A DNA stretch of 64,000 bases from Trichoplax sp. H2. Taxonomy: Eukaryota. The stretch covers positions 1-64,000 of the forward strand of contig NOWV01000154.1 in assembly GCA_003344405.1 (NCBI GenBank), written 5' to 3'. Both the position numbers and the translations under genes were made by a program. The notes below the pieces were generated by a model. That model saw only the letters and a list, made by a program, of their open reading frames with translations, searched no databases and was not told where the DNA came from. Numbering within the stretch: position 1 is the first letter of the stretch; the number at the start of each line of letters is the position of its first letter. Shown here one piece after another: positions 686-59,980 of this stretch.

Positions 686-1000
686 TGTACTGTACTGTAG
701 GTTTAGCGTTACAGTGTAAAATACTGTAATGTACTGTACTGTACAGTGTACAGTACACTACTGTACTGTACTGTACTGTAGTCAAGGATTCCTAGAGGGA
801 AATACCGTACAGTACTTGGCCGGCAGGTTTACAGTACGGTATTCTAGCACGTGTACAGTACTGTACAGTGTCCACTGTCCAGTACGGTACTGTACAGTAC
901 AGTAATTCACTGATGACAGTACAGTATAGTGTACTGTACAGTACTGTACTGTACTGTACGGTAGTGTTGAAATGGCGAAGACATTTACGGACTGTAGTAT
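686..1000. repeat. Palindromic CAGTA/TACTG pentamer array upstream of NME5
   Basis: Dense runs of tactg/cagta with tgtaca and agtact inversion points. Inverted arms aataccgtac (801-810) and gtacggtatt (834-843). Confidence 0.9.
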
Positions 1001-3120
1001 TGTATAATCTTTCAATTATAATTTGACTTTAAGGATTAAAAATTTCAAGTGAATTTCCTCTTATTTTTGTAATTAATGTTCATACTCAGGATTTAATTAC
1101 GTAAGGGTTACCAGAGGAATAAAAGTAAAAAATAATAAAATTCATTTCTAAACATGAAATACTAAGTTAAGTTGTATGTGTTGATGTACTGTATACTTTA
1201 CACATACATTCTGTACCAAGATCCTCATCCGTTCATGCTGTCCTCACATCTTGCTACAGTATCAAGATTCGCCCTTTTACTTACAGTACTCTACAAGTTC
1301 CATCCTCAACTTATCCAAATTATTTTATTTTTAATTTTATAATTTCGCAATTTTTTCTTCTTTCTTTCTACTCAGTGTACAGTGTTGCGACAGCAAACGT
1401 AACTCTGTCTGTCTGTGTCTACCGAAGTGATGACTCTACACAGTGTACAGTATGTGACTGAGTGTTATTTATCATCCTGCTGTCATGTGATCGTAGAACG
1501 TTTTAAATGGTGCTAAGGAGGGTGTAACTGCCGATGACCATTATGGGGCGAGAAGGTGGAATATGCCAATCGGTCACACTCTAAAAACTCTATAACTTCA
1601 ACATATCGATTCATTCATTTAAACGCCCACTAGATTCTTATTAAACATAAGCAGCATGGATTATGGAGTAAAAACTTTTTTTCTATAAATCTCCTATAAT
1701 TAATATGTAGTAGTATAACTAATAGGAAAGTTATGATTCAACTCACTATTCCATAGCTTACGTTGAATCTGCCTCACCCCTTTAGTACGTAGTGCTTTAA
1801 CTATATACAGTACCGCACAAGTGCACATTTTATTTTTATTTTTCTTATCTTATGCTTGTTTATATATTAAAATATATATGGTAACTAATAATAATGCACA
1901 CTGCGTACGTAATAAATCAAACCCACTCATTCTTACTTAATCCGACTAAAACGTCTCACAATTTTCGCGTGCATGTAAATTACTAAAGGTGAGAGTAGAA
2001 TAAGAATTTCGTAAGGATTTCGTCTCAACTCCACTGAGTTATAAGGCGATTTTTTGATCAGTTGCTTTATGTAATGAATCATTATGGATGCGTTACGATA
2101 CTTATGAGAATTGACCGTGTCTTTCAATTTGAAATTTTAATAATTTATCGTCAGTGCTTTTATTCCGTTCATAAGCGTATAATTAAATAAATAACTGTTA
2201 TGAAATTATTTTGATTAGATCCTATTAGAAATTTGCTCCAATTTTTGTCATGATTGGAAGAATGACATATTATTTCGGCTTATGCTTAATGCAAGTATGA
2301 AATGTTATCTTACAGAAATTTTATGCAGCATGTGTACCGATTGTAATTATCGAATCCGTCTTCGAATCCGTCATTATATACATATCACAATCATAAATAA
2401 CGATTGTATACATTAAGTGTTTAGTAACGAATAGAGAATTAAGTTGTAATTGAAATCTCTTGTAATATCAATACATTAATATATTTCAAAAAATATCAGC
2501 TTTTAGTATTATTTCCATCAATCATGAGCTATCGTGTTTAGTACCGCGTATTCCATCGAAATTGCTGAACTTTAAGATTCAAAATTCAAAGAAATCTTCA
2601 TTTAATGATTGATGAGTATGTACTGTATTAAACTGCTCATCCTTATTGTTATAGAGTATTATACCTGGTCGTATTCCATTGGTAAACGCTTCCTGTTTAG
2701 TGGTTTCGATTTCAGAAGCTCTCACTATATCTACCACACGGAAATCGTCATTACAGTTATTCTTAGTGTTATAAACTTTATATGTACTGTCAGCCTTTTA
2801 AAATATTGTATAATTATAGTTTCTTTTACTAATTTAAAAGATGACTAAAGCAATACCTTAATAAAGGCTTTAATTAAATGATTATCGCAACTATCGTAGT
2901 AAAACTGATAGTGTACGTCCAAACTGCATTTCTGATAGCTCACCATTTTACTGTATAATTTGTTCTTCATATAGACAGCATGTAATATCATTTAGCAATT
3001 CACGTTCATAACATTAGTTTCGTAATTTCTTCCAATATGTATCTGTACGGATAATCGCTATCTTTAATCGACGTAAAGATAAGACTAATTATATAACACT
3101 AGATTAGCTATAAATATCAT

Positions 3121-4234
3121 TTATTCGCCGTTACTTTGGCGGTAGGTTACACCCATAACTACATCGTCGTTAATGATCATTTTTTGCTTTTTGCAGCATT
3201 TATTAACTCCTAATAGCTCATAAAAACTATGCCTAAATTTTCGATTAAGAAATCCATATATAACAGGATTACAGGCTGAATTCATCAATGCTAACCATGT
3301 AGTAGCTGTAAAGAATAACTTGGGAAATGGACAGTAGGGAAATGTTAAGCAAATAATGCCAAAAAAGTGGGGAGACCAACATATCATAAATGTTCCCATG
3401 ACAGTCATCAACGTAATCGTTGCTTTTTCTTCACGACGATATTTACGAAACGCATTTGTTATACGACTTTTATCTCTAATATCAACTGGTGAAAGAATTA
3501 CTGCCATTAGACTGATTATGTTCCTGATTACTATTATTATTATTGTCCTCACTTGGTGTTCCCGGAAGATTTAAAGAAGCCATTTCGGCGGCAATTATTT
3601 TCGATTGTGCCCGAGCAACTCGTAATATGTGATAATAACAATAAGCCATAATAGCTAAAGGTAAAAAAAAAGCAGCTCCAATTGTTGTTAAAGTATAGCT
3701 TAAGCTATGGCCCCAATCGGCCGTACATAATGACTCTTCATAGTAATACCGATAAGTGCTCCATCCAGTAAATGGTAAAGCAGCAAAAACAAAGGCATGT
3801 AGCCATATGTACACAACCATACAAGTAACAGTTCTAGGGCTCATTTTTCGATGGTAATCCAATGGACGAAGTATAACATAATAACGATCTATACTAACTG
3901 CGCTTAATGTCAATAGCGATACAATACAAAAGAAAGAATTGGCAAATCCTTGTATTTGGCACATTTCGTAGCCAAATATCCACCGAACAGTAACACTCGA
4001 TACAGCTGCTAATGACATACCAATAATGGCAAAGAGTAAATCAGCTACTGCTAGATTAGCAACAAACACATTACGTATAGTTTGTAAGCTCTTCTTCCTT
4101 TTGATTGATAGCAGGACTAAGATGTTTCCTGCAATAGCAGCGATAGCGAAAAATGTCATTGTCGAAGCTTCAGCTACAATAGAAGGTACTGTTTTATTGT
4201 AAGTTTCATTTTGTGGTGTTATTAGTGATCTCAT
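3121..4234 (-). CDS. Orphan class A (rhodopsin-like) GPCR, GPR161/aminergic-like; exons 4234-3553 and 3485-3121 with a predicted 67-nt intron (or a frameshift) in ICL3
   Basis: TM1 GN, TM2 LAVADL, TM3 DRY, TM4 W and TM5 FLP are in ORF 3482-4234. TM6 CWSP and TM7 NPVIY are in ORF 3121-3552. A GTGAGG...TTTCACCAG intron at 3552-3486 (phase 1) restores one frame. Confidence 0.88.
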
Positions 4235-7200
4235 TATGGCTATAACAAAGCCCTTTCTATTGCTTTTAACTTAAAAAGTCTTGAAAATGGATTGCCAAAT
4301 CTTAAATTTTCTTGTTGAAATTTTTCGCTTTAACATGACCATTCATAACTGATTTAAAATAAATTGCAGCGATAACTAGCTAGCTATCAACTGATAACAA
4401 TAAATTTTACGAAAGAGACGAATCTTGATATTTGGTTCGGCAATTATTTCCAGTTGTTTCTTAAGATAGCGATTCCCAGTTAGAAGCGGAAATTAACAAG
4501 ATTTGGACAAACTATGATATAGAATGTAATACTTTAATGATTTCACAAGATCTGAATAAATTTTTCTTGATTGAAACTCAAAAATCAGCCAACTTTGACG
4601 ATATTAATGGAAAAACAATTCGATCTTGAACACCAAGATGGTAAGAGTGAAAGAGGGATATAGTTGTTGTAAAATTAACAGGATATTAACTCGTAGATTG
4701 CGCAATCTCTTCACATTTGTTTTTCTTATTTTCACTAACTTTAACAAATTTGGCTAACTGTCTTCATGTTTACATGAATGGCATCAACTATCATCTTCAA
4801 GCTATAAACAAAAAGCAAAGCAAGTTTTAAAACACTGGCAAGGATCATGGTATCATGGAAATACAAGTTCAGACACTTTCTAGACATGGTAAACGCCGTA
4901 ACTTGGAGCTATGTATAACATGTCAATGTAAATAATAAAATGACCAGCCTAAGTACCAACCACTTCGCTGGCTGGTTACTTGATTCTTTATAAATCCTTA
5001 GGCCCTATAATTTGGTTAGTGCGTGCCCACAACTAATATGGTGCTTCGTATGGACATATGTTAAGAACGGAGAACTAATATATTAGTGCGATTATCCTAT
5101 TACCATGGCAAGTTACTGTAACTAGAAGGCTACAAATGACGTAGAGGTACTTTAAGACTTTTTCTGTACCATACTCCTTCCTAATTTCAAGACCACAAAA
5201 AATAATCAAAATTCTACTGTAATTGTTCATGATGCTCATAATCCGGTCTAGCATATTTTCTATACTGGATAGCATCGTACAATATGTAGATTGAAACAGA
5301 ATTATTAATAGCAAGAGAATAAGAATTAGATGATTGACTAATTCGGATAAATTGCATTGAAACATCAAAGGATACTGGTGGTAATGTTTTAAAAAATTAT
5401 CCCTATTACAAAATTCTCTCTAATTACTCCGCTATCGAATAACATTGCTGCATGGTAGTTGCTACTGCCATTATCTCCGCCCGATTATCGTATTCATTCA
5501 AGGAATAAAAGTGTTCACTTCATTACTTGTAACGTTACTATGTAGTGTATAATAATATCATTCTCTAATACTTATTTAATATTAAGATCAATCATGAAAA
5601 TGTGCCTAAAAATGCTATATCGTAACAATATTAGCTTTCTGCTGTATATAGCAAAATCTTCAAGGATTTAGAAGAGGGAAATCATTTCTTTATACAAAAA
5701 GAAATGATTAATGGATAGAGAAATAATACAAGAGCTGTAAATGTGACAGCATGGGATAAGGATAGTATGATAGTCTAAAAGAGTTAATTGATAATGAAAA
5801 TTAATGATGAAAGCATTTCCTAATTTAATAATTTCATGTAGCTGACAAAATTAATTTCCAGTTGTACTGCCCTCCTACCGTTGTTTCAGAAAATTTAAAT
5901 GATGATCATGTTATGTCAGAGAGAAGTAAACAATATAAAGAATAGAAATATTCCAGTAAAGCCTTAATAATATTATAATTAACACATTTTTATTGTCTTG
6001 TCATAGATAAAACACCAAGACATATCTGTTATTTATCATCCGCCCTAAGTTTTAATGCAGATAATCTGAATTTTTATCCTACACCCAGTATTTAATAATA
6101 ACTTCCAGTTACAATTTGAATTCCTTTAAGTAGAGTCAGAAAGACAAAATAATATAAGTAGCTGCAATCACACTTGAAATTAAGATTGGAAGTTATCAAA
6201 TGCAAATTATCAAAATATGATACGATGATGACGTTTTTATCGTAACAGGCGAATCAAAATTGTTTGGAACGACATCAGCCGAGAATGTAACAGAATAACA
6301 CAATTATTATTAATCTAATAATTTCAATATCAGTTTTACTCTCTTCAAAATCAGCAGATGGCGATACTTTAATCGTGCTTATTTTCAGCGTATGCAAAAT
6401 AAGTTTTACGACTAAGTAAATTCGCAACGGTAAACCCTTCAGAATGACTATCTCTCATATATTTTATGAGTGACTGGCTGTTATTAAACTTAATCCTTAC
6501 TACACGGTATACGCGTATATGCCAAAATAGTAGCTTACACATGACAAAATCAAAATGAAGACTTAATTTTCCTAAGTGTTAAATACCAGCAAGCAAAATG
6601 CATTAACAAATAAACGATTACCTTCGGGACTTTTATTGTGACGATGGAGGTTGAAGTATAAGTATAATCTAGTTTAATGTGGAGAGATACCATGCAGTCA
6701 AAATTTAATAAATAAAATGATATTAGACAGTATCGATGTTATATAAATCGGTAAGTTGATAATGAATATTGGAAAGAAGAAACAAAAGATGGCTTAAAAT
6801 CTTTTGAAAAATGGTATCATACATATCGTTCATAATTAATATTTAATATTTAAGATTGAATGAAAGTTATTATTTTCATTAGGTGATGTCGTTGATATAA
6901 GAATTGAAAGATCAGTGACAGCGTAAAAATAGATATTTACTCTGAAACAATCGTTATTTGATTGTTAGGAATAATACTACCTTTCATCCAATATAAAATT
7001 AAAAAATTAAGGCTGGATATAAATTGAATTATGATATCATACTAATTCAATTAATTATTGACTAGTTTACGTAAAAAAGACAACGATAATGCAAATAAAA
7101 TGTTTATAAAACTGTTTTGCGTCTAATTAAATGGATACATTCCGAGTATGTTAAAAGACTAAGATAACGATATTAGTATGAAATGAATCTTTTATTTCTT

Positions 7201-8676
7201 TTGAAATCAGCTTTACTCTGTTAAATACCCGGGGATCATAACCCTAGTTCTGCATAAAGTATAGAAATATTAATGTACTGTATGATTTATTACCCAGATA
7301 TCTATATTAATTCAAAGTACCGTACACGTATACGCTTGCAATGAATTAGCCTATTGAAATAATTTAGAATACTCTACATCTACTTCATTTTACATGTATT
7401 AGGAGTCAAATTAAGCCCAAATAATATTGAAACTGACAATCGATAATGCTTGATACTGGGATAAACATCAACGTTTAACATTTCACCAAGGTTTAAGTAA
7501 GACCATATACAGGCTATAAACTTAAAATAGTAATTTTTCTGCAGTGTCACATAATTAAAATATCATGAGAAATGAATGGGCGAACGTCAAATTCAAAAAT
7601 CTAAAAATATTACGGGACAATATTGTCACTGAAATTATCTACATAAACAGTACGAGAGAAATGCTTTGATTATTGCAATGTGACGAAGGATGAACACAGT
7701 AGTGTCATTAATGAATCATGATTTTATCCACTGAAATATAGTACCACTAAAAGGTTTCCATAGCTTTACATATATGGTTACTACATCAGATTCTTATGCT
7801 TTATATGAAAGATGAATAATAACCCATGCCTTGCATTGTTCGCAGAAAATAATCTTTGTCTTTGCTTTTAATTCACAATACAACTGTAGTCTGTACTACA
7901 ACCGCACAGCCTACTTTGTAAGAGTACAATAGGCTTATAGGAAGCAAAATTAAGTCTAAAATACTTTTGAAAAGTGGCGATTAATAACATCATACAAATA
8001 GATAGCCAATGTTTACTTATATTATATTCTATTTTATATAGCATCATTAAATTTATCTCTAAATAGCCCTCTGCATGACGTTCGTAATAAATAATTCAGC
8101 ATAAGGACACCGCTGACATCAAGCATAATAGGTGTACTTAAAAAATGAAGATTTAGGAAACTTATCGAATTGCACTGTAGAATATGGTTACTGCCGGGAA
8201 CTATAGTGCACCTCATCTTGCTGGGATAGTTCAGGAGTAAAAAGGAGTTTTTTTGGTCTAATTAGCACTATATAGCTATAATTAATAAGTTTGTTATTCG
8301 TAAATTGGTCGTATAAGCGTTAAGGCTAGATAAGTGGAATAGCCTGAATGACTACTCCTATGCTGCAATGAACGTACACGAAAATTTTTTAAAATAATTT
8401 TTCAGACTGAGCACATGCTTGTAAAATACTATTTGTCCCGTAGATTCAGGATGATTTCGTTGAGAATTGAAAGCCAATAATTCTATATTGTAGAGCTGAG
8501 ATGGAATAGTTTAGACTAAACCACCAATATATTACATCAAGTAGTATATATAATAAGCAAGAAACTAAAGTGAAGAAGTATGCTTGCCGGATGCCAATTA
8601 CGTAACTCATGAAGGAGTGTAAAGGGCAGTCATGATTGATGAAGGTCGTAAATGTCGTAATAAATTGTAATTTATC

Positions 8677-8693
8677 CTCTCTCTCTCTCTCTC
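8677..8693. repeat. (CT)n microsatellite
   Basis: ctctctctctctctctc. Confidence 0.8.
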
Positions 8694-11600
8694 CACTCGT
8701 TAACTACGATAATTAATTAATGTAAACTAATAAAAACTTTACTAGCGCTAAAAAATTACTTCTATTTAATCTATTAGTAATCGTACCACTCTTTCCATAA
8801 GAGTCTTTTCTACTGCATATAAACCAAATTATAGATTCGACGTCGTATTTAAGACTGTTTTATATAACATTTATGTCTACTGAATAATCAGCTGACGAGT
8901 ATAGTCCTATAATATCACGGTTTACTAATTTTCTAAGAACAATCATGGCTTCAAAAGTGATATAATTGTTCGATATTAGACAACAGCTGACTTTAAATAT
9001 GGACACACTTCCGTCAGATGCTTCTACTTATGATTGTAACCCTTTCACAGTGTAGATAGTATTAGCAGAAGTTTATACGCGTACATTGCTACAATTCAGC
9101 TGTTCATTTGTAGATCTTCGTAAACACTAAATTAAACAAGATCATAATTTCGACGCTCCGATGATCATTCAATTTATGTCTGCAATAATAATGAATATTA
9201 TATAATTTGGCGAGAAAGGAACTTAATTAAGTAAATATGAGACGATATACGTAAGTACGGATCAAATTAAATTTCTAGAAAATATATTAATTGATGATTC
9301 ATAAATTGTCATGAAAATCCACAGCAATTTCAACAATTAGGCGCTAACGATAAGCAAATATTTGTCGCGATAAAGTGGTAACAGATGGATAAGCATCGGA
9401 AATATAGAAAACAGACGTTGCAAGTGTTGATAAATAATAGTACTTCAAACAGCTATAATTTACAATAAATTGGAATATTTGATATCGCTAATATTTCGTC
9501 AACCTATACTGTCATTTGTGTATGTTTCTGTTTCTTCAGGAAACGAAGAGGTTATAAAGGAACAATATTCTTAGAATTGCCTAGTGCTTGATAACAAGAG
9601 GAAGCATTATCAAATCCTTCTTTAAGCCTTCAGAAGTACAGAATTAGTAGTGGTATTTTAATCGCTCAGCGGGAACTGTACTGTACATCTGCAATATCTA
9701 GCTGAAGGAAATCAATTAATAGATATATCATTCATCACTTGAAGTAACCTTGTAAATTAATTTCTTAGACTTACAGGTACAATTAATGTCGACTTCAAAT
9801 TACGCTGTTACAGAAGAAAGCAAACAATTGTAGTAATTTAAGTTCTATTGTACAACATTTACATTAATGATGATCAGGTTTGTTCCTATTGCAGCGTTTT
9901 TAAAGGTAAAGTGTAGAGTGATATCATCACTCATAGAAATTTGTAGTAAATAGAATAGAATAAATCCGATAAGAATAGTCTACGCGATGGGCTATCTTTA
10001 CATGCATTACAAAAAAATTGGTAAAGTACAGTACTCGTTTGTAAGGCTAAAGAAGGCTTAAGTTGTAGGTAATGATTAATACTTGTGAAGTCATTAAGTA
10101 CATGGTGGTCTGGTGCAGATTTCGTAAGCATATCAATGACTTGCAATAGGGATATTCTTGCAGATAAAGCTACTAAGGTATGAGTAAATACTATAGTTAA
10201 AATATCTGTTTCTCTCTTTATCCCATTATTTTACTGAAAAAACATTTTAAAATTCAATTTCAGACCTATTGCGCTAAATTTGTTTAAGTTTTATGTAAGG
10301 TATGAAGAGCTTGGTAAGTATCAACATGATGGGCGAAGGAAAATCACTAATATCAACTAGCCTCATTCTCAAACGCATAGACAAAGTTGTAATATATGTT
10401 AAGGCTGTTGATATCATAGTAAGGAGTCGTCAAAAATTGCTTCTATTATTATTTTCCTTTATATGAATGTATAGCAACACACTATTATATTAAAAATAGT
10501 ATATCATCTAAAGTTTTATGTGTGTAGTGTTCAACTACAAAATTCCGGAGCTCATAATCAAATTTCCCGAACAACGTACTTCCATCATATTCAGATTATA
10601 TTAGTGGTAGTCAGTAATTCATGTCAATAAAAAATGTTTATAAAGATAGAATTGTATGCGAATCCACCACAATCTTTTCCAAATAGTTATTTAATTGACT
10701 TTAACACTTAACCATTTAATAGCATCATCGTAAACTTATTGTTGCTTTGTACCAATAAAATTTAAGTAATGCTTAATACGGCAGAAAAAATTAGTGAAGA
10801 TAAAAAAACTCATGAATAAATCATTATTGCGTATAATTTACTCATTGATTAGTCTAAAAATGTAAGTCTGCAATAGTTGAAATAGGTTCTGATAATTGAG
10901 TAGACTATTAACAAATACATTTTTTATTATAATTCTAGCCTTTAGCAGGTTCTACGATACAATAAAATCTTCAAGTATGAAAATAATTCTGAAATAAACA
11001 ATACATGTAGCTGAAGGTGATCCTTATTATAAATAACGTTCGAATGTATTTGTCTGTACATGAAATATGGGCTGGTATCATTTCTGAGAACATACATAAG
11101 TAGCAGATGTTAACGGTGTATAGTATAGTAACGTAATGATATGAATACAGCACATAGTTTTTACCTTATTAATGAAACCTAATACGAATCTGGTGATCAA
11201 ATTCGATAATTGCCCTACAATTGCACTACACTAAGGACCTCTACTATTGTTTACTTATGAAATTTGGATGGAAATAGAATAGAAAAGTTAGGAGAGCTAT
11301 TAGGTATATCTTCCAAGTAAATGGCAAGTTACCGAGATTTTGTGAAGTTCTTCACAAAAATCGCTAAAATTAAGCTCTCATATTTTGAATAAAACTCTAT
11401 TTCAAAATAAAGTTATTAATGATGCTAACTTACAATTTTAGTAGAACTTTCTGATTTTTATAATTCTTGATTTAATTGACCAACTTGTTAAGAGAGATAC
11501 AGGCTCAATACAGCACGATTCTTTAATCGGCGCATCGGACTTTCATTCTCCTTCTCGATCGTCAAATCTAGAGGACATGAGGTAAACTGTCACAGAGTAG

Positions 11601-46024: not shown

Positions 46025-46139
46025 TAGTATTATTTCCTTTATGATTATGCATCTAATACTGCTTTATAACTGGTGTTTGATTAGGTAAATAGTACTTATC
46101 TTGATAGATTGATATGTGTAAGTATTGGGTATATTACTC

Positions 46140-47223: not shown

Positions 47224-48482
47224 CTGCATGATATAAATACCTTCCAACATACGACTCGTATATACGGTATATAACTTGAATTGGTGAGGCGTTACGTAAA
47301 ATACAATAGTTGAAATTATGGTTAACAAAGTGATGAAGAAACCTTTATAATCATGTCCTTTTAAACAATTCAAACAATTCAATTCTGAGCAACAAGATCC
47401 TTCCTGAGCTCCAAACCTTTCATTGATGTTATCACTAGCTTAAAACATAATTGTTATGCCCTGATAGGTTCTACGACATCCATTAACAGCTGGTGTTCAT
47501 CATACTCAAATGTCCTGTAATATTAGTGACCAAATAATAGTATTAAGATTGTTGTTTGTATCTTCCTCAGTCCTCACCCGGTTAGTAAAGATTAGCCTTA
47601 GTAGGTATGGAAAGTATTATTATCAGGGTTACCTTATATCCAATTTAAGGTATATAAATATTAAATGGCACCTACTGTATAAACTAGCTATTTACAGTAT
47701 GCTAACACACTAATTCAACGGATAGCAGCGATTTCAATGATTTAAAATTTTTTATCAATAATAACATTTTATTGTCGCTAATAGTACCTTAAATTCGTTA
47801 CAATGAAAAGTTAAAATACAATAAACTTCGATGGCGTTACATTGCTTTGATATATGGCATATGGAATAGCGGTCATCCTATTATCGCACCTGTTGAATTG
47901 AAGAATTACCCGTGTAAAAGTTTCAGCCTTTTTTTCTCAAGTTTAATAGCCATTAGAATTGCTTTGATCAATGATTGTTAATCAATCATCTATTAATACG
48001 ACTAACGATAATTGCATTACAGGAGCTCATCAGATGAGACACAGTAAACAATATGCATATCGTAATATTCAAATGATTATTAACAAATTGGACAGACTAA
48101 TTGTCATTTCTCTTAGTAATCATTTATCCCCCCTAGAAGGAAATGATCATTCATTATGAAATGCTTGCGGCCTTAATAGGATCGCCTTATACTGTATTGA
48201 TTTAAAAAAATGATATATTGTGAACGTTAATACACGATAAATCAGCGCAACACACACCTGTATGGATTAAAATTACGGCCAACGTCTTCTTAAGAACTGA
48301 TCGCACTCAGGCAAGATTTTTCAAGATTAGGATTACCCTAGACGTAATAATATCTATTCTACCCCATATACGACAAATATAAGTGTAACACAATTCTAAA
48401 GATAGGCTTCAAAAATCCGGCAATAAATACAAATAATAATAGATGAAGGTAATGAACTACATAAAATCACCCTCATATATGG

Positions 48483-48520
48483 TTAACTTTTTGACCGGCG
48501 ATACGAGTCTCGTATCGCCG
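48483..48520. repeat. GC-rich perfect hairpin, possible solitary DNA-transposon terminus
   Basis: cggcgatacgag-t-ctcgtatcgccg (12-bp arms, 48496-48520) preceded by ttaactttttgac. Confidence 0.6.
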
Positions 48521-51145
48521 TATCGGCATTTACTTTAGCATTAATGACCTAAAGCTAAATAACATCGGCTATTGTGTACTTAGGAACTTTTATTTCGCTT
48601 ACAGGTAAAGTCAATATCGAATTAAAAATTGACGGATTTGTTTATAGTGATGCCCCTTTACCATAGTGATTTCATTGAAAACAATAATAACTCAATCAAA
48701 TACATTGGCAATTCTAATGCGATAATCGTATTGTTATCGTCGCAAGTGATGGCGAAATGCTAATAGGATTAATTTTAATTGGCGGTATCTCAAAGGCATC
48801 ATTAATGTATTGTCTTCGATGATAATGACTTACGAGAAGGGACGGATCATAGCTATCTCGTTGCCCATCATATAACAATTGTGTAATAAAATATTGATGA
48901 CGTTCACATAATGCAATAGTCATCTGAATTTCTTTTTCGTTAGTCTATCGACTTGATTTCAAACTATTCATACAGATGAATCTAATAGTAAGAAATACAT
49001 ATACAATAACATTAAAACGGTATACGAACATGCTATTAGGGCTATCCAGTCTTAGCCTTAACCTGCCCTTCATATATTGAGTTGATCAACTAAAAACATG
49101 AATGAGGATATAAATTGAACTTGATTTTAACAATTTTTCGCAATGGGTTTTTTTACCGTTTCCAAGCATATTTATGTCATTTAATATTATACGTACATAT
49201 GATGCAATTGCGGAAGATAGGAGATCGTTGCAAAAATAGCATCAGATGTAATCGTTTATTTTGATTGAGGTATATAGTAAATAATGAGATGAAGTTGTTT
49301 GAATTTGTGAAAATAAGTACTGTAGGTAAATACAAAAAAAAATAAAAATCACTGTGTCAGCAAATTCCACTATAAATTTATTTTTTAGTGATATGATAGT
49401 AATTGACCAATAATAATTACGCATGCAATCATACGCAAAATAAAGGATTCATTTAAATATGGATTACCGCATTTCGTGGAAGGATGAAAAAATTGCATCT
49501 TGATTATTTTATCGCGATGCACTTACAGACACTCAATTGATTAAAATGTGAAATTTTTTTATTATTCCACGGTTTTAAAATTACATTCTTAATTTCGCCC
49601 AATGGTGCATGAATAGGCACAACTAATGACTAGTGACATAAAAATAAACCAATTTCGAAGATATGGATGTAACATATATTAGTAACATTCCATGTGTATC
49701 ACATTGTGTCACTAATTACATATAATTTTAGTGGATCGATTATATTAGAGAACTTCGTTTAACCAACTCCAAATATTATAATTTAAGATTTTGCATTACA
49801 GACTGTAACCTACATACATATTTTATATGTAACACATAATAACATCAAAAACAAAATAATCGATCGAAACAAATTATCTATGCTAAGTGCTATTGGCATC
49901 ATAAACATGATCATAAAGATTTGTGTATCCGTTTGTGATCTTATCGAATGAAGTGTACTCCTTAAGTATTGTACAAATACTGCGAGAGTTGCACTGAAAT
50001 GAATACAAAATGCTTTAGTTCAAACTAGAGATGATGACATGGATGTGCATTTCAAATTGTTGAGAATGGTCGATGTTAGAATAATATACGATACAACGAT
50101 GATTATTATCATTACATGATAAGAGAGCAATAGCGCGGACGTAATCATTCCTTTCAATCGATGGAATAGGTACAATAGTTACACAGAATTTAGTAAGTAT
50201 AACTTAATACACCAGTACGGTGCTATAACTTGGACAATAACAGTAATACTTAAAACTTTTACGATAACGCAAATTAAGATGATAGCAGAATGTAAGCCTT
50301 GACATATTTGAAGAGATAATTACAAGTTTAACTATGACAAGAATAAATTTAAATTTCGCTATGATATGCTAGGGTTAATGAACTTGGATGATATCTTTTG
50401 CAATCATAACAATAAGACAAGGCAGATTAAAGAAAACAAAAATAGTTTGAACGGATATCGATCGATTTGAAATATTAACAAAATTAAAACGATAATCCAT
50501 GCTATACAGTTATCGTGATGACACGAATTTAATCCTAGTGCATGTCCCATGTGTTCTTCATTTACGTATTCATGGTTGCGATGATCCAGCAAGTAACAAG
50601 TTACATAACTTTAATTTATACCAGTTTTATGTTTTACTTTTTTAAAATGATTTAAACATTAAGCTAGCAGAATTAGAATTAGAGACCCTTTAGGGAAGAA
50701 AAATTGGAGTAATTTCTTACATTGCTGCTTTTGAAATCCTTTTACCTACTTTGTAAACGGCCTATTTCCATCTTTCATCGTAATTAGACAAAAGTTAGGT
50801 AGTGATTTCGTAAAGAGCATGGTTACAATAGCTTAATTATGTACAAATAGTGACACATACCATATTGCTCTGGGTAAGCAAAAGCTTTAAAATCATAAAA
50901 ACCTTGATGAATGCTATAGTGCGACAAGCTAAGATAACGATACATATTGTTTGTACATAAATGTATATATATATATACTAGATTAAAACCAGATGAACAG
51001 TACTTTTAATTATGCGGAAATTAGTTTCTTTATGGGTAGAATTAAACTAAAGAGATGATGACTACATACATGTATGCCACATATCTATAATCTATAGTAA
51101 CGGTTATCAAGCAGTATTGCGCTAGACAAGCACATATATGTGAAA

Positions 51146-51146
<1 letters not shown>

Positions 51147-51171
<25 letters not shown>
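51147..51171. repeat. (TA)n microsatellite in the probable TENT5 3' UTR
   Basis: About 12 TA units; a shorter run lies at ~50963-50977. Confidence 0.8.
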
Positions 51172-51176
<5 letters not shown>

Positions 51177-51857
51177 CGTTTTTATGATGTATGGATACAT
51201 AGATAGATAGATAGTTACGTACATATATAGTAGATTTACAAATGTATAGAGACAAGCTACACGTTTGATCATTACGATAGGAGTAGATACAGTAGTATAA
51301 CGTCGACACCGCCAATACTAATCGGTGCAATAAAAATTATAACTGTAATAATTAATAAAACCTTTATATTGCAATGTAATCATAATAAGTCGATATTATC
51401 TTTCGACAAGTAACGATTCTTTAAGTTTCTTTATAAGAAATTAGGACTTGATAAAGCACAAGCAATTACTCTAATAATTAAAATACATACACGATCTATT
51501 AATGACGATTGATGAATTTTTGTCAAGATACCAGTTTAAAGGATAAAAAAATAATTTTTTTGTACCTACATTACGGAATATATCGCATTCCTAAGTTTCA
51601 ATAATATGACAGTTTCTAAATCGGTCATCTATTATTAATAGCAATCTATTGTGATGTACTATTAATAATTACAGGAGTTCCGATTAGTAAATAACTAACA
51701 GTAAGATTTATACGAGTTGCAGCGTAGATCTTCCCACTTATTCAAACATACCATGAACCTAATTGATATTGATGTCCATAGATTACCATCTGTATTTTTT
51801 CTTGTTTTACGACAGTCTAGTACTTAATATAAGGAGAATCGTTTAAACACTTATTGG

Positions 51858-53138
51858 TTAACAAGTGATGGGTACCCATTTGCTGGAAGGCCAGCCAAGA
51901 TTTGATGAAGATATAGACATCATTTGAAGCGATTGGGTTTGTTGCTGTATACGATTGGCTGTCGGATGATGTTGCAAGTGTTGCTGAAGTGGTAAAGCGC
52001 CGGGTAATAGTTGTGGTGGACCAGGTTGCAACCGCTGTTGCTTCAAGCGACGATATGTATGAGGATGTCGCTGTTGCTGGTGTTGAGGCACATAACTGAT
52101 AGGGATATATTGATTATAACGTGATTGTAGTGTCACATTTGTATTGTACATTTCACCTATTAAATAATCGATCATGTCCAATGTTTGCCAACGTTCATGG
52201 CGCATCAAGCAAACAGTTGAATTACCAATAACATTGTATAGTGTCTTTAGAAATTCCAATTTATGGTGATCTTCACCAATAAAATGGTCTGCGACGTAAC
52301 TTTGTAATTTTTGCCATTGTGTCTGGACATCGGCGAAATCGATAAAAAATCGACTGCACATGTAACGTTCTAAACTTCGCAAATGATCGGTATCTATAGG
52401 CACGAAACCGTGAACTAACAAATTGCAGTATTTTAGTAAACCACCACCACGAATTTCCTCAGGTTTATGAGTGACGATATAACGATTTTTTAGATGGCTT
52501 AAGGCCAAAGCAAAATCACCATATACCGATTCACCAATAACAGTTGGAAAAATGTTACGACACATTTCATAACATGATGATTTGTAATGTTCCAACATTG
52601 AATCCAAAATAATTTGAAAGGAATCGACAGAAAATTCATATTGACGTCTCATACGATCGACAAATTTCAATTCGAAATTTTTTCCGTTGTTATTATACAA
52701 GGAAATCAACGACCAACAATCCATTTCTTTGATCACTTTCACCATTTTGCGAACATAGGCAGACTGCAATGTTGTATCAGTCAATCTATCTTTGACTACA
52801 TCATTCGGTAGTGAATCGAGTAAGGCATCAAGAACGATTTGCTTGACCTTATCCATCTCTTCTTGATCATCCATTTTGACGCGAAAGATAACATCGATAT
52901 CGTGGTATGTAGGCGCTTCGTGACCACCTAAGGCGAAGCTAGCACCACTACCATTCAAACGAACATCATACAAATGTATACCGTGGATTGCCAGTTTCTT
53001 CAATATTAAATTGACAAATTGATATGGACGGACTTCCAATGAAGGAAAATTTCCAACTCCATCGATGGATATCACTTGAGTCAAAATTTCGTCCAACCGA
53101 CTGACTTGATCATAATCCAATATATGAGAGTTAGCCAT
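51858..53138 (-). CDS. TENT5: Terminal nucleotidyltransferase 5 (FAM46) non-canonical poly(A) polymerase, intronless, 426 aa
   Basis: GNFPSL, RLNGSGAS, DIDVIF (catalytic DxD), YVRKMVKV, WSLISL, ELKFVD, RRQYEFSVDSFQIILD, RGGGLLKYC, ERYMCSRFFIDF, STVCLMRHER. Q/H/P-rich tail. Confidence 0.97.
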   Translation of the reverse strand: MANSHILDYDQVSRLDEILTQVISIDGVGNFPSLEVRPYQFVNLILKKLAIHGIHLYDVRLNGSGASFALGGHEAPTYHDIDVIFRVKMDDQEEMDKVKQIVLDALLDSLPNDVVKDRLTDTTLQSAYVRKMVKVIKEMDCWSLISLYNNNGKNFELKFVDRMRRQYEFSVDSFQIILDSMLEHYKSSCYEMCRNIFPTVIGESVYGDFALALSHLKNRYIVTHKPEEIRGGGLLKYCNLLVHGFVPIDTDHLRSLERYMCSRFFIDFADVQTQWQKLQSYVADHFIGEDHHKLEFLKTLYNVIGNSTVCLMRHERWQTLDMIDYLIGEMYNTNVTLQSRYNQYIPISYVPQHQQQRHPHTYRRLKQQRLQPGPPQLLPGALPLQQHLQHHPTANRIQQQTQSLQMMSISSSNLGWPSSKWVPITC

Positions 53139-53679
53139 AATATAATCGCAGCAAGTTATTCTTGACGTTTGGAAAATAGCAATAGTACACGATTGTCAAT
53201 TTGCTTGCAGATGATGTTTCAAATGAGATAATATCCAATGACACAAGAATATCGTGTTCCTCACTCACGTACAGATGCAAATATGCTATTAAAAAAAAAC
53301 TTGCCCGAACAACAACTCAACTTTTAGGCACCGTGGTACAGGTCTATATTTTTTTCTCTCTTACTTTTTTTTGAATTACTGATACTTTTACGCCTATTGA
53401 AGTTGGAAGTTATCGATTGATAAGGCTAGCAGAAATTCAATTCCTGACTAATAATTGAACAAGTGACAAATGCAACTTTCTACAATGTTGAAAAGTTTGA
53501 CGATAAAAATGACGGAAAAGTCTGCTTCAAATCGCTCTAAAAATGTCAAATCGTCCACAAGTAAGTCTATAAGGGGGATAGTCGCAAATAAAATGTTCAA
53601 ATACTAAATTGCTTTAATATACAAATAGTGTCGATAAAAGAAAATAATCAATTATTCAATGAAATCGCAATCACGATGT

Positions 53680-53770
53680 TCATTGGTCGGGTGTATTATT
53701 GCATAGCAACAACAGACGTTTATTTATAGAAATACATTCATAATGATAGATAGCGGAAGTGATTGGCTAA
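53680..53770 (-). promoter_or_regulatory. Putative TENT5 promoter elements: two CCAAT boxes and an ETS-like CGGAAGT
   Basis: attgg at ~53682 and ~53762 (CCAAT on the gene strand); cggaagt at 53754-53760; ~550-630 bp upstream of the ATG. Confidence 0.35.
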
Positions 53771-53929
53771 TAATGTTGATTGAATGTTTGAATAGAGAAT
53801 TCGTCCAACCCCCTGGCAATCCCGGCATGCCTTGCGATCATTGTTTTCTTTAAATAGATTAGATTCATTCTAATGCTGGCTGAGTGTCGGCATCATATCC
53901 TGTATGCCTTTTACGCTAGACACATACAG

Positions 53930-54170
53930 TCCTGTACTGTTAGACATGACAGTACTATATGGCAGCTTTCAATGGTGGGACGGGACCACAGAGGTAAGAA
54001 AAAACCTTTATGGGTGGCGACTGACAATCTGACAGTGTATTGTACTGTTAGTACTGTACAGTAAAGTACAGTACACGCTAATTGAGCTCTAGAAATTTCT
54101 ACGGTGTACTACTGTATGTCTGACAAAAGTGCTGACTGCTGAGTACGCTGTGCCTTTTTGGCTTGTGTAC
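53930..54170. repeat. Weaker CAGTA/TACTG array upstream of TENT5
   Basis: tgtactgttagtactgtacagtaaagtacagtacac at ~54041-54076 plus flanking copies. Confidence 0.7.
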
Positions 54171-54639
54171 AGTATTTATTAATTAATATTGATAGTGCAA
54201 ATCGAGATAGGTTGTCAACAATAGTCTCTCTAGTGCAATTGACTCTGAATCAAGTCGTGGCTGTAGCGCATACCCATAGATACAGCGACATAGATTTACC
54301 ATCACCCACTGTCAAACAAGTTATTTACGCTAACTTGGCACATTTGAGTTAGAATGGAGATTCACTGCCATCTGTATTGTATGAGTGAGTACAGTATACG
54401 GTATAATATGCGTAGTGTAACGAGCGAGGGGTCTATTAGTGATTATTATAGAAAGTGACATTTTATCTCGTAATATTGTACTGTATTCTTCTAAGCAGTA
54501 CGATGTAATGTTACCGGATGGTATACTCGCAAAGGATGTGTCCGATATGTATATTATACAATATACAGTTGATCTGGATGAAATAGATTTTATTTTACTC
54601 GTATCTTCTCGAGAAAAAAAGCAAGACTCAGCAGAAAGT

Positions 54640-54862
54640 TTATGTTGCAGTACTGTACTGTACAGTACACAGCGGTGAAATAGAGTACAGTACTGTACTG
54701 TACAGTGTACACTGTAAACTCAGGGTTCAGTTCTGTGCAGTACAGTACAGTAAAATGCTGAGTCAATGTACCGTACAGTACACTAGTGTACTGTACAGCA
54801 TAGTATGCGCAGTGTAACGATGGAGAATCGTATGTAAATTTTGACTACAGTACAGTACTGTA
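54640..54862. repeat. CAGTA/TACTG array at the start of SERHL copy 1
   Basis: cagtactgtactgtacagtacac, gtacagtactgtactgtacagtgtacactgta and similar blocks directly flank the predicted ATG at 54820. Confidence 0.88.
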
Positions 54863-57800
54863 TGCCAAGTTTGCCAACAATAAAGTTAATTACTGTTAGG
54901 TAAATCAGAAATCGAACTACAACAATTAGCATCTCCTATGGAAGAAATTACTTGTGGTACGATATGTATAATATATACTGAATTCGATTTTTTTGTCAGT
55001 AAAACATCGTCATCATTACCATCGTTCACTTACTGCAGTTGCATTTATATTATTTTATATTATATTGACACATACTACGTATAAACGTCATTATGCTCCG
55101 GAATCTTATTGATGACGTTTATAGCAGTAATCTATACTCTAGTCTACGCTATTAACAAAGTTATTGCAGTTAAGTATTCATTGATTTATTTTGCTTAATA
55201 TTATCCCCTTAGCTATATTTGTAATGATCTAGCACAGAATTTAGTATCTTTAACCAAACTAAAAGTACGTCGAATCTTTGCAATGCAATTTCAGCTACTG
55301 CAAGTATAAGAAATATTTCAACTTTAGCATCAGCAAGCCTTTGACCTTTGATAGTAACGTCTTGTAACCTTTGTAATTTGCATGCGCATACTGTACTGTA
55401 CTGTACTGTATGTGTAATAATAACGTAATAGCCAATGTTGTGCTTTGGTAATAACGACATTATTGCCAGGGCTTGGATTTGAAATCATCAATTCAGCAAA
55501 TTTAAGAATTGTCAAGCCATGAGATCATTGCATGTAATCAAACAGAGAGAATGAAAACTACTCATGGATACAGTATTGCAACGTATTGTCATTAGACTAG
55601 AAAATTAGTCTTTGTGCTATACCGATACTGTATTTACCTGAAATCAACTTCGATACGAAGGCGGAGAATGGAAGTTATTGCATATACTTAGAGATATCTT
55701 TCAAGCTGTCCCCGACTTTTAGCACAAGTGTTATGCGTTGCCAAAGTTAGCTAATATCATTTATCTTTAGCCTTTTATGGGATATGTATTTGTTGATAAT
55801 TTTATAGAACTGTGTTTTCCTAGATTCAATGGGTCTATACCATTATCCTATAATCTAGCTAGGAATAATTATATAACTATATAGCATTGCACATACCGTA
55901 CAAAAATTGAATCTAATACCGTACTTTACGTCAGGCTGTTAGTCAGGATTTGCAAATAGATCTGCAAATTCTAATAAAATGAAATATTTTAGTAGCTAAT
56001 TGTTACTAATATGCTATTGAAATCAATTAACTCACAGAAGAACTATCAGTAGCAGTACCATGGGGTACTATGGCTGCTAAAAGCTGGAACTCAGAATGCA
56101 CAAAGATAATAATAGGAATTCACGGTTGGTTTATGTTACTAGAACATACTGTATTAGCTATACAGTACATTATACGGGTATATAGTAATGCTCTACATGA
56201 AGTGTGCAGATACAATAATAGTTATACAATCATTCAATAGGACAGGGTGATTTTATAGAGTATATGAATTCATTTCCTGTAAAAGGATACGCATTTCTTG
56301 CATTGATTTGCACAGTATATAATATCGATGGTTTGTGTTTCCTGTTAATAGGATGGCAAGATAATGCTAATTCATTTGATAAATTAATCCCACTATTACC
56401 GAAAGGTTTGCAATCTTGATGTACAAGTACCATTAATAACTTATTGCAATAATGTATATGCTGTGGTATTACATATTGGGTTTTCATATTATTTCTATTG
56501 ATCTCCAAGCTTGATAACATTAATGGCTTTTGCCTCTTAAGGTATTAGATACATTATCCTTGATCTCCCCGGACATGGTAAATCGTCATATTTTCCTCCT
56601 GGAACTATGTACGAAATGCAAAGATACATCATGAGTCTGCACTTTTTTGTCAAGGGTAAGCTGGCACATTGCGGATCAGTAACATCTATACCATTACTAT
56701 ATTTACTGATGGATTGATATAATAAGTATTTTAGGTACTTATTACGCTGTATAGTATCCGATGTAATTACTTTTTAACTAGTTACAAGCAATCATCGGAC
56801 GTTCCAGCAGTATCGTTTACATACACCACGAATAAAATTATATAGTTACTGTAGCTATAGATTTATATACGTATATAGATTGATTGATGAAAATGGGTTT
56901 ACCAGAACTAACTATTTCGTACAGCTACACGTACTATTCATCCTTATTGTTGGAATACGATTATCCAGTTTGTTAACGTTGTTATTCTCATCGTTATTTC
57001 ATTCAAATATTTCTATGATTCCAGGCTCATCCGTTGTGTAACGATTTTCCTGATTGCTTTTTATTTTTGTATCTTAATTGCTGACAGGTTTAAAACTAGA
57101 TAAATTTTCGTTAATGGGGCATAGCTTAGGTAAATATCATATCAGTTTCTTAGTTTAATACACGGTGAAGCAACCTTAACCTTGCCTACGTTATGTATAC
57201 TTCCTTTTCTCTCATTTTGTTGAACTTATCTATCTAACCTTCTTGTAGGTGGTGCTGTCTGCTGTCTGGTATGTTTTTTGCTTACTGTGTAATTTTTGGA
57301 TCTGATATAAAACGAATATAACCTTTTAACGGTAGCTTACGTAAACATGAATTACGCCATTTCATAGTATTCCGGTACCTTCCCTAATAATGTATACGAA
57401 TTAATTATACTAGAATCGATATGTGCTGCATCGGGAGAACCAGTAAGAAAATGTTTAGTTTATATTCATGTATAAAGCTACCCATCATCAGAATCTTTAA
57501 TCCTTTTTCTTCTCAATAACAGGAAAGATTAGTGAACTTATTTTCTGAGGGTCTCGACTCTTTCGTAAAGGGTGAGTTCAGAACGGCAAAGCCTTATCCA
57601 ACAATTGACGCAGCCGTCGAAAGGTTAGTTTAAGTTGTTAACTTATATCACATAATATTGCCGTATAAAACACAAGCATACTTATATTAGTTTAGCGTAA
57701 CATTAATAAAATTTAGAATAAGATATACTTTACTGCGTCATTAACGACCTTTTCTCTAGGTTGAAACTAGCAAACAATTCTTTGACAGATGACGCTGCAA

Positions 57801-58653
57801 AAATTCTAATTGACAGAGGCACAGTCAAATCGGAAAATGGTTAGTTATAAAACTAACTTACATATTTTTATGTTCAACTTTTGTAGCTAAATCAATTCAC
57901 TGTATTCAGAATCGCTTTACTGGTTATCTTATGATCAAAGTACTATAGTCAATAATTCTTTACAATCTATAAGTTAACCGAATTTTCTTCTTTTTAAGGC
58001 TATTTATTTGTTAGAGATCCGGTATTGTATCAAGTAAGAATGTACTCTCAGCTAAATGCCGTAAAATTATTCCAAATCATACCATTACATACACGTCTTC
58101 GTTTTATAGAGTACCCTTCGAATGGCGCGAGAGGTGCAACTAGAAATAGTCTCCAGGATTAAAGCGAAAACGTTAATTGTTCTGTAGGTGATCTTTAAAT
58201 ATACCACTGGAACTAAATAGTATTTGAAGTGCTATTAAAATATAATATGCTACTTATAGAGCAGAGGATGGACTTATACTCAAAGGCGTTGATGCTGCAG
58301 TTTTAGCCCGTCTTCTTGAAGCTTACAAGAAAAGCACATCTTTGGTAAGAATCTTGGAAATCTTTATAGTTATGCTAGTGTTGTACGAAGCATTAACATA
58401 ACATCATTCTTAAATAGCCTTATAAATACCATCAACACTAGTATTGATGAGCTACCATACAACACTGAAATGCAACAAAATATTAATATACCAATGTTTA
58501 TTTCATTTCTATTCGCCATTGTTACATTTAAATGGGATTTAGTACAAGCAAGTTACCGTGCCTGGCAAACATCACATACACCTGACTGATCCAGAATCTA
58601 TTAGTCAAATTATTTGTGACTTCCTAAATGACAGCGTAGAAGATTCATCTTAA
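54820..58653 (+). CDS. SERHL: Serine hydrolase-like (SERHL/SERHL2-type) alpha/beta hydrolase, copy 1; exons 54820-54829 (tentative), 56038-56124, 56352-56405, 56542-56655, 57088-57129, 57249-57268, 57368-57442, 57523-57623, 57760-57839, 57999-58033, 58110-58183, 58260-58344, 58543-58653
   Basis: ELSVAVPWG, HGWQDNANSFDKLIPLLP, DLPGHGKS, GHSLGG nucleophile elbow, YLFVRDP, VPGKHHIHL (catalytic His). The first exon ATGGAGAATC|GTATGT is phase-compatible but unconfirmed. Confidence 0.88.
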
Positions 58654-59473
58654 TGATGCAATAAACTGATACGACTTAGATATCCTATGGTACCGCTTAG
58701 AACTTTAAGTAACTGAAGTTTTGCTACATTTCTCCTAAGGGTAAAAACTTTAAATTTTAAAATAGGTCAACGAATTTCTTTCATAATTTAATATTCTACT
58801 GAACGTAATAAGGTGATATTCGTACTAAGCATAACATTATAAGAATGATTACCATAGCACTATACGATAAATATAAAAAGTACTATAAAGTTTCACTGCA
58901 GCTTGCCATTGTTTGCTATGGGTTACTACAAGATACTAAGAATGACTGACACAATACTTGCTCTATCCTTTCCTTGTACCCATATGTGCAATATATTATT
59001 TATCTATTCTGACAATGAAAAAAATTGATGGATGTAAATTGAAGATTTTGAGGAGAATAAACCAGCTGCGGATATTTAAAATTTATATTACATGTATTGT
59101 GTCATTCTATTTATTAATTATTATACTAGTGTACCCTGGAATGAATTACGTATATCTTACAAAGAATACTTTAAACTCGCAATTGCACTAAGCGTGGGTC
59201 GGTATGCAGCTCCACGTCATGCTATAGCATATACATATCTGCGAAGTCATAGATACACCTGGAATGTCTAAACCCGTGATTTTCTACGCATTAAGCCTGT
59301 CATATAATACTCATTAATTAACTTACCTATGAACTACTAGAAGAAGACCTAGTAGTCCATGACTTAACCAACTGTAATAGAGGTAAATCACCATGGCCAC
59401 TCTATGGGCAGTGTGCCTCTTGGAAGCCTTGCCACTACCCGACAAGGCCAGAACACTACTTTTAGGGTAGTGT

Positions 59474-59760
59474 CAGGGAGTACTAAGAAGAAAGAAAGGG
59501 GCAGAACGGTCGTTCAAAATAGCAAAAATGAGGGGGGCTGACTACTTTGTTGGTTATCTCAGCTGAACCGTATCTGAAACGATACACTATACTGTCTACG
59601 ATTGTTATCCAAATTTTAGCCGCTTGGTTGATTTTGTACAGTATAGCGTAGTATACGGTTTATGTGGTAGTATATCGTAGAATGACCCAAAAAATGATAA
59701 GCCCCCTATTATTTTGCATTAAATGCCCGCTATGCGTCCCTCTCTTTCTAGTAATCCCTG
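59474..59760. mobile_element. Degenerate MITE-like/foldback element with CAGGG...CCCTG termini
   Basis: The left arm cagggagtactaagaag...gcaaaaatgaggggggct (59474-59539) is an imperfect reverse complement of the right arm agccccctattattttgc...tctttctagtaatccctg (59700-59760). No target-site duplication found. Confidence 0.45.
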
Positions 59761-59779
59761 CTACTCTGTTTTTAGTATG

Positions 59780-59980
59780 CAGAGTACAGTACGGCAGGGA
59801 CTACAGTACTAAAGAAGAGAAAAGACTGTCCAACATTAGCTGCTAATGATGCTGCGAAGTTGGTCTTGTACAGTACTGTATAATATGGTAGAATGACTGG
59901 AAAAAGAATAAGCCGCTGCATTTACACACTGTAGTGTACTGTATGTACAGTGTACAGTACAGTAATCTACTGTACACACA
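59780..59980. repeat. CAGTA/TACTG array upstream of SERHL copy 2
   Basis: tgtacagtactgta and cactgtagtgtactgtatgtacagtgtacagtacagta lie ~150-340 bp upstream of the tentative ATG at 60125. Confidence 0.8.

Follow-up and report, generated by a model that had tools for sequence, protein, structure and literature searches.

Does a single short word, repeated in dense clusters, mark the promoters of the broadly used genes in a placozoan genome? The question is raised by a stretch of 64,000 nucleotides from Trichoplax sp. H2 (contig NOWV01000154.1 of assembly GCA_003344405.1, positions 1 to 64,000 of the forward strand; in the following, the window), for which an earlier note described palindromic arrays of the pentamer CAGTA/TACTG at the 5' end of every gene not encoding a G protein-coupled receptor (GPCR) and suggested that they are an analogue of CpG islands. 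We find that the arrays exist, that they lie 5' of all broadly used genes of the window and of no GPCR, that the repeat alone is shared among them, and that a second species has the array words in high copy number. On balance we favour the reading that the arrays are the Trichoplax form of a placozoan housekeeping-promoter and loop-anchor motif, and that they most likely offer a putative sequence-specific protein a platform for multivalent binding.

Unit and position of the arrays

The window is compact and AT-rich (32% GC), and the expected counts of words were taken from 100 dinucleotide-preserving shuffles of it. Over the whole window CAGTA or TACTG was found 318 times against 142.2 expected (sd 9.9, highest shuffle 170), the two-core word GTACWGTAC (W being A or T) 65 times against 0.4 (highest shuffle 2), and three phased GTACs 23 times against 0 in the shuffles. 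The hexamers TGTACA and AGTACT were found 64 and 45 times, respectively, against 27.0 and 21.1 in the shuffles. Successive GTACs are spaced by 5 bp in 69 cases, with 7 bp (11 cases) as the runner-up, and Tandem Repeats Finder (TRF) reports arrays of period 5 at the places given in Table 1. The 200-bp bins holding at least five CAGTA/TACTG (n=11) are confined to 601-1000, 32001-32200, 32801-33200, 41201-41600, 54001-54200, 54601-55000, and 59801-60000, and with these bins and an objective clustering of GTAC (Table 1) the dense clusters described in the earlier note were recovered in all seven of its regions. Two further groups, 30682-30806 and 31525-31642, were rejected as arrays, having four GTACs each but no 5-bp phasing.

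The repeat is best written as (GTACW)n, a palindromic GTAC core followed by an A/T spacer. Of the 63 spacers between cores phased at 5 bp, 60 are A/T (30 A and 30 T), 2 are C, and 1 is G. Adjacent spacers within the arrays were the same in 13 cases and different in 12 (12/25), a switch rate of 0.48 that corresponds to a random, uncorrelated choice of A or T. Because GTAC reads the same on both strands, only the fifth base sets the orientation of the pentamer (GTACA being of the CAGTA type and GTACT of the TACTG type), and any (GTACW)n repeat whose spacer may be either A or T therefore yields both the TGTACA/AGTACT dyads and the alternating orientation automatically. The palindromic, alternating design that had been ascribed to the arrays thus reduces to a GTAC core with a random spacer, beyond which the palindromic hexamers show no enrichment. 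A sense-strand bias of the GTACW unit was rejected (27 vs 18, p=0.23), and so was ATCGAT as an array-linked word, its 42 sites being scattered across the whole window.

The position of the arrays was tested against ten start codons of the window (8 non-GPCR and 2 GPCR), whose 1-kb upstream zones make up 14.2% of it. It is clear that the arrays gather in these zones, which hold 58 of the 65 GTACWGTAC matches and 7 of the 8 loci with multiple hits (binomial p=8e-6). The claim that every array precedes a start codon by no more than about 1 kb consequently holds for seven loci and fails for the eighth, at 55393-55406, which is found in intron 1 of the first of two SERHL-like genes. All eight non-GPCR genes, their broad use being judged from gene identity, have at least two GTACWGTAC matches upstream while both GPCRs have 0, which bears out the distribution first noticed, and WGTACW is missing from the 1.5 kb upstream of each GPCR, where 2.65 would be expected by background. 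Single matches outside the upstream zones are found at 9678, 10026, 38811, 40654, and 60736; the first two are the only ones in the 19-kb gene-poor stretch, from which a comparable cluster had correctly been reported missing. The closest array edge is 81 to 913 bp from the ATG. Head-to-head gene pairs have one array per gene and not one per intergenic region (32184-32271 with 32973-33080, and 54042-54170 with 54650-54858), and both of the old SERHL-like paralogues retain an array 80-170 bp before the ATG, though their promoters no longer align.

With respect to base composition, the GC content of the arrays is 0.41-0.43 against 0.32 in the window, and their observed-to-expected ratio (o/e) of CpG is 0-1.01 against 0.96, i.e. 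CpG is not enriched. The value of 0.96 also means that the window is not depleted of CpG, a level compatible with a genome that has little or no CpG methylation. The arrays do resemble the CpG islands of vertebrates in marking, by composition, the promoters of broadly expressed genes, but CpG islands are stretches of a composition with raised CpG, whereas the arrays consist of a defined repeated word without CpG enrichment; the proposed analogy can be kept for a mark that is specific to the lineage and set on the promoters of broadly used genes, and has to be given up for CpG itself.

A probable placozoan promoter and loop-anchor motif

The literature search on a promoter motif in Trichoplax or placozoans gave one relevant paper only, Kim et al. 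2025 (Nature, PMC12221973). According to its text, 2,978 genes of T. adhaerens (GP1) have peaks in the assay for transposase-accessible chromatin (ATAC), peaks of histone H3 lysine 4 trimethylation (H3K4me3), and loops, and are of the housekeeping type, GP3 genes are without these marks and have peptidergic-cell functions, and GP2 is a further class. The text also reports that loop anchors and GP1 promoters are enriched in a single motif, which four placozoan species have at orthologous promoters, and that this motif resembles or lies in the terminal inverted repeats (TIRs) of 'Mutator' elements, the authors leaving undecided whether TIRs were domesticated or insertion was targeted. Since the logo is given in figures only (Fig. 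3d, Extended Data Fig. 8k), we infer, with good confidence, that this motif is GTACW, because the genus and the gene classes are the same, because the array words are conserved in a second species, and because the inverted-repeat nature of the unit would explain the TIR calls. As far as the text of the paper goes, the two agree in their occurrence in Trichoplax and, probably, in other placozoan species, at housekeeping-type promoters but not at cell-type-specific genes, and in their inverted-repeat character; they differ in that the published motif is a single one inside Mutator TIRs, whereas the window has GTACW arrays of 40-270 bp without any sign of a transposon, a comparison made on properties and not on letters. 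If the published motif is GTACW, our finding is largely already known, its central part having very probably appeared in 2025; what is left as new would then be the grammar of the arrays and the evidence from within the window that no transposon is needed, and the link to 'Mutator' may be an artefact of annotation. The letters of the motif were not found in print in connection with Trichoplax in the literature search, the papers matching GTACAGTAC having primers or miRNAs among the matches listed, and the motif is not mentioned by Najle et al. 2023.

The second species came to light when the contigs of four public runs (Logan), three under the two organism labels of the window itself (A and B) and one labelled as a different organism, C (probably DNA), were compared with positions 41000-60999. 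Contigs of all four runs pile up exactly on the arrays. For organism C the bin depths are 1933 (41.0-41.7 kb), 2024 (54.3-55.0 kb), and 787 (59.7-60.3 kb), with about 0-10 in most other bins and 17-65 for the single-copy contigs of the run, and the loose contig ends beside the arrays disagree with each other (consensus agreement about 0.4). This related species, a contig of which is about 84% identical to the TENT5 coding region, thus appears to have array words at many loci, with flanks that are unrelated and a copy number in the order of hundreds. Some RNA contigs that stem from other loci likewise hold array words and have loose ends to either side (depth 705 in one case), so that arrays can lie inside transcripts. 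The Logan contigs cannot place transcription start sites (TSSs), and RNA libraries may contain DNA; gaps in the cover (e.g. 47.0-49.4 kb in run X20) and the stop of an organism C contig at 53731 were accordingly discarded as evidence for TSSs.

In the reading that we favour, TSS-proximal clusters of the palindromic GTAC core, flanked by A/T and kept in a 5-bp register, would act as a platform at or just upstream of the TSS. The platform would be read by a putative sequence-specific protein, probably binding the palindrome as a dimer, which would keep the promoters open and, in line with Micro-C results from the literature, gather them into promoter hubs. The ties of the motif to ATAC, H3K4me3, and loops at GP1 genes are taken from the text of Kim et al. 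2025 (PMC12221973), while the protein reading the arrays and the importance of multivalency, like all mechanistic steps beyond location, are what we infer. A maintained function appears favoured over decay because drift affects which of the two bases the spacer is but neither its A/T nature nor the core, because there is one array per transcription unit, and because both old SERHL-like paralogues keep their array in promoters that can no longer be aligned.

Several points weigh against this platform. No candidate for the binding protein is known, and the preprint of Mukherjee & Moroz, which reports no factor of the Mutator-derived FHY3 type in Trichoplax, does not supply one. The evidence presented here consists of sequence and position, with contigs that cannot place TSSs, the set of genes is small (10 genes only), and the distance between array and ATG varies over the range given above. 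Like repeats are ordinary microsatellites in other organisms, so that the sequence as such is not special, and in the text of Kim et al. 2025 (PMC12221973), where the letters are confined to figures, 'gtac' and 'tactg' occur 0 times.

Known systems offer some parallels. As a functional analogy only, the arrays may be likened to GAGA with GAF and to DRE with DREF and BEAF-32 at the housekeeping promoters of Drosophila, where short repeated or palindromic words are likewise clustered at broadly active promoters. The factor reading these words is multimeric or architectural, and it opens chromatin and brings promoters into contact. Their sequence is unrelated to GTACW, and the reader is known there but putative here. 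The GC motif of ctenophore loop anchors, bound by CTEP1/CTEP2, is according to the text of PMC12221973 lineage-specific, loop-anchoring, and associated with transposable elements, as the arrays may be, but it has another sequence, serves enhancer-promoter instead of promoter-promoter loops, and has known binding proteins.

Placozoan genes are regulated almost entirely from proximal promoters, and the genomes fold into thousands of promoter-promoter loops. If the GTACW arrays are the anchor motif, their grammar, i.e. the GTAC core, the A/T spacer, the 5-bp register, and the one array per transcription unit, provides a probe for the factor. The arrays also bear on the question from 2025 whether Mutator TIRs were domesticated, insertion was targeted, or, as the window suggests, no transposon was involved.

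Transposons, microsatellites, and DNA structure

The arrays could be relics or TIRs of Mutator-like MITEs (miniature inverted-repeat transposable elements) that insert preferentially into the open promoters of highly expressed genes, in which case the association with gene starts would reflect target choice and not function. Such elements share with the arrays an inverted-repeat structure, a small size, and a promoter-proximal site. The arrays are indeed self-complementary, 276 of the 756 inverted 10-bp seed pairs of the window falling within them, and the text of Kim et al. 2025 (PMC12221973) states that GP1 promoters often hold Mutator insertions with the motif within the TIRs, and has targeted integration among the options listed. 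The TIR feature cannot discriminate, however, because any two GTACW arrays are mutual inverted repeats by construction, and the comparison has to be made with the sequences next to the arrays. When 7 loci, comprising the arrays and about 200-500 bp of flank per side, were compared with each other by blastn, the arrays alone gave matches, at 68-77% identity, in many registers and in either orientation, and 0 of 1973 non-self matches reached at least 20 bp beyond the arrays with E<0.002; flanks and termini are thus not shared. In organism C, too, the flanks of the array words are heterogeneous.

Target site duplications (TSDs) gave a similar outcome. An exact direct repeat of at least 8 bp around the array was absent from 9 of 11 boundary sets, and the two exceptions are an 8-mer (32996/33048) inside the 32973-33080 array and a 9-mer pair (59891/60009) at chance level for the number of tests. 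The Mutator class is assigned by a TSD of 9-11 bp. We emulated the structural calling of transposable elements with exact inverted seeds of 10 bp, spaced by 50-2000 bp, together with a flanking direct repeat of 9-11 bp, which gave 0 candidates in the window when exact and 10 candidates with one mismatch, all of these having their ends in arrays and array units as 'TSDs'. The idea that a 5-bp period automatically gives exact 10-bp 'TSDs' failed, as it is true only with one mismatch, but the arrays can mimic TIR/TSD boundaries for a tolerant structure-based caller. The window also lacks a transposase as judged by Pfam, which matched a transposase family in 0 of 364 open reading frames (ORFs; at least 45 aa). 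In contrast to the window arrays, Mutator-like MITEs have common termini, internal sequence, and a genuine TSD. The shared TIR/TSD boundaries by which the earlier note would have recognised a MITE family were accordingly looked for within the window, and none was genuine; its view of independently maintained arrays stands insofar as nothing is shared beyond the repeat, and is qualified by the published link of the motif to Mutator TIRs.

This link deserves attention, since the published repeat annotation comes from a structure-based pipeline, EDTA v2.1.0 according to the text of Kim et al. 2025 (PMC12221973). As described in the text of Ou et al. 2019, EDTA relies on GRF and TIR-Learner without a copy-number filter on TIR candidates, and its false-discovery rate for TIR elements in rice went from 57% down to 31%. 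Taken together, we consider transposon relics an unlikely explanation. We also put forward, tentatively and as a possibility that we hold to be somewhat doubtful, that the promoter arrays are a (GTACW)n platform for a placozoan-specific factor, maintained by selection and continually renewed, and that the 'Mutator TIR' link is an artefact of a structure-based caller working on a self-complementary repeat of 5-bp period that mimics TIRs and 10-bp 'TSDs'. If true, an early-branching animal would have a promoter and loop-anchor code that is encoded in repeats and independent of transposons.

A promoter platform is also to be distinguished from neutral pentanucleotide microsatellites, which could arise by slippage and gather at promoters through a mutational bias linked to transcription or accessibility. 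TRF does find tracts of period 5, some of them pure, e.g. (TACTG)4.4 at 55389-55410, and at least 113 metagenome contigs, varied in GC (0.34-0.63), contain (GTACW) runs of 5 units or more, from which it follows that the unit is not unique to this genome. These (GTACA)n/(GTACT)n microsatellites of other eukaryotes have the same unit and the same 5-bp period as the window arrays, but they are long, with runs up to 42 units, and mostly pure (87 of the 113 contigs, as judged by the spacer of the longest run). In the window the phased runs are short, none exceeding 6 GTAC, and their spacer switch rate is 0.48 against 0.11 in the metagenome tracts, a set (loci L001-L113) that was selected for at least 5 phased units, i.e. 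for long runs. What is special to the window is therefore the short, interrupted form with random A/T spacer together with the link to gene starts. The strict localisation, the array kept by both SERHL-like paralogues, and the motif conservation at orthologous promoters of placozoan species reported in the text of Kim et al. 2025 (PMC12221973) argue further against neutral slippage, which we regard as improbable. Among the metagenome tracts a few (L020, L023, L032, and L084) are mixed A/T arrays akin to the Trichoplax form.

Finally, the arrays might act via the DNA itself, either by a TA step every 5 bp and a cruciform potential leading to nucleosome exclusion or positioning, or as CAGT starts similar to the initiator element (Inr) that give dispersed initiation on both strands. 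The resemblance to the Inr lies in the CA+1GT core. Single-strand DNA folds of 8 array segments had z-scores of -1.55 to -4.70, where the shuffles (200 for each) contained none as good or better for 3 of the 8 segments and at most one for 6 of the 8, and the array words inside RNA contigs are what would be expected if initiation takes place in or before the arrays. The hairpin potential is, however, an automatic result of a self-complementary unit, the palindromic hexamers are not enriched, the unit shows no bias to the sense strand, and the RNA libraries may contain DNA. We give this mode of action a small chance as the explanation of the arrays; it is compatible with a protein-bound platform.

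Genes beside the arrays and further features

For the gene map, every stop-to-stop ORF of the window with at least 45 aa (n=364) was scanned with Pfam, and the features are collected in Table 1.

Table 1 GTACW arrays and gene features of the window, with the clusters obtained by objective clustering of GTAC (smaller clusters in brackets).
Feature	Position	Strand	GTAC clusters	TRF period-5 arrays	Remarks
NDK exon of NME5-like gene	3-215	-			Pfam
GTACW array upstream of NME5-like gene	687-959 (sub-arrays 687-780, 852-967)		687-959	722-780, 852-967	27 GTAC, 16 GTACWGTAC
Rhodopsin-type GPCR 1	3124-4270	-			Pfam
Rhodopsin-type GPCR 2	23604-24797	-			Pfam
Septin exons	29360-29575, 30020-30178	-			Pfam
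GTACW array of septin	32058-32271 (main part 32184-32271)		32184-32271		11 GTAC, 5 GTACWGTAC
GTACW array of CD36/SCARB-like gene	32877-33080		32973-33080 (32877-32908)	33019-33083	16 GTAC, 8 GTACWGTAC in 32973-33080
CD36-family exons	34599-36892	+			Pfam
COMM domain exon	39023-39199	-			Pfam
GTACW arrays between COMMD and BCKDHB	41197-41595		41197-41248, 41306-41501 (41577-41595)	41332-41412, 41424-41494	5+23+3 GTAC
BCKDHB-type transketolase exons	44017-46021	+			Pfam
TENT5 ORF	51861-53138, ATG 53138	-			Pfam/ORF
Weaker GTACW array of TENT5	53930-54170		54042-54170		8 GTAC, 2 GTACWGTAC in 54042-54170
GTACW array of SERHL-like 1	54650-54858		54650-54858		18 GTAC, 10 GTACWGTAC
Short pure (GTACT)3 tract	55393-55406		(55393-55406)	55389-55410	In intron 1 of SERHL-like 1; (TACTG)4.4 by TRF
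GTACW array of SERHL-like 2	59784-59985		59936-59975 (59784-59809)		About 140-170 bp upstream of presumed ATG

The first array has its closest edge 478 bp from the ATG of the NME5-like gene at 209(-). Between this array and the gene start, at 640-653, lies GTTGCCTTAGCAAC, the sole match in the window to GTNRCCNNRGYAAC, the X-box consensus of RFX; 0.12 matches are expected per window by chance, and 10 of 100 shuffles had at least one. The position would fit RFX control of a cilium gene (NME5-like, a ciliary-type NDK) beside the general array.

For the septin gene the ATG was placed at about 31947(-), which is an unverified guess from the sequence. The ATG of the SCARB-like gene is at 33917(+), in an exon for an N-terminal membrane span (33908-34042) and 837 bp away from its array. 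COMMD (ATG 41064, -) and BCKDHB (ATG 41761, +) are head-to-head with their arrays in a common region of 700 bp, and exon 1 of BCKDHB ends at 41879, as seen from a GT..AG joint (41879>42689) in RNA contigs.

In the TENT5 region, contigs of RNA or probable-RNA runs span 51941-53370 and 53442-54121. About 2.4 kb 3' of the TENT5 stop (49450-51861) are covered by RNA contigs as well (49450-50082 and 50053-51923 in run X20, 49597-50709 and 50711-51923 in run X18), which points to a long 3' UTR or to a transcript missing from the annotation; Pfam has no match in 49450-51861. The TENT5 contig of organism C aligns also at 53569-53731, 430-590 bp upstream of the ATG, with 13 differences in 163 positions, and this conserved stretch is presumed to belong to the TENT5 5' UTR.

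The SERHL-like genes form a tandem pair on the plus strand, 54939-58184 and 60126-63700, with exons from 56037 and from 61261, respectively, and matching exon order (tblastn). The first has its ATG at 54939(+), 81 bp from its array, and its exon 1 ends at 54955 according to a GT..AG joint (54955>56037) in RNA contigs, while the presumed ATG of the second, at about 60126(+), was read from the sequence and not from RNA joints. The paralogues are 58-88% identical in amino acids per exon and have a GHSLG nucleophile motif, and Pfam on single exons gives only a weak Abhydrolase_1 match (E=0.073, 62042-62248). The reading of the pair as alpha/beta-hydrolases would thus rest on the GHSLG motif and the alignment of the paralogues, and the name SERHL is plausible but not proven.

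Rfam families and tRNAs are absent from the whole window, and Pfam, Rfam, and tRNA searches gave nothing above thresholds in 4271-23600. Within the 19-kb gene-poor stretch TRF finds a 35-bp unit repeated 1.9 times with 87% match at 18184-18251. GPCR 2, over 23604-24755(-), shares 95% identity with TRIADDRAFT_26009 of Trichoplax adhaerens, which places the window in Trichoplax, and GPCR 1 is contained in two overlapping frames, 3485-4270 covering positions 1-189 of 7tm_1 and 3124-3570 covering positions 177-260, a split that is due to either a short intron or a frameshift.

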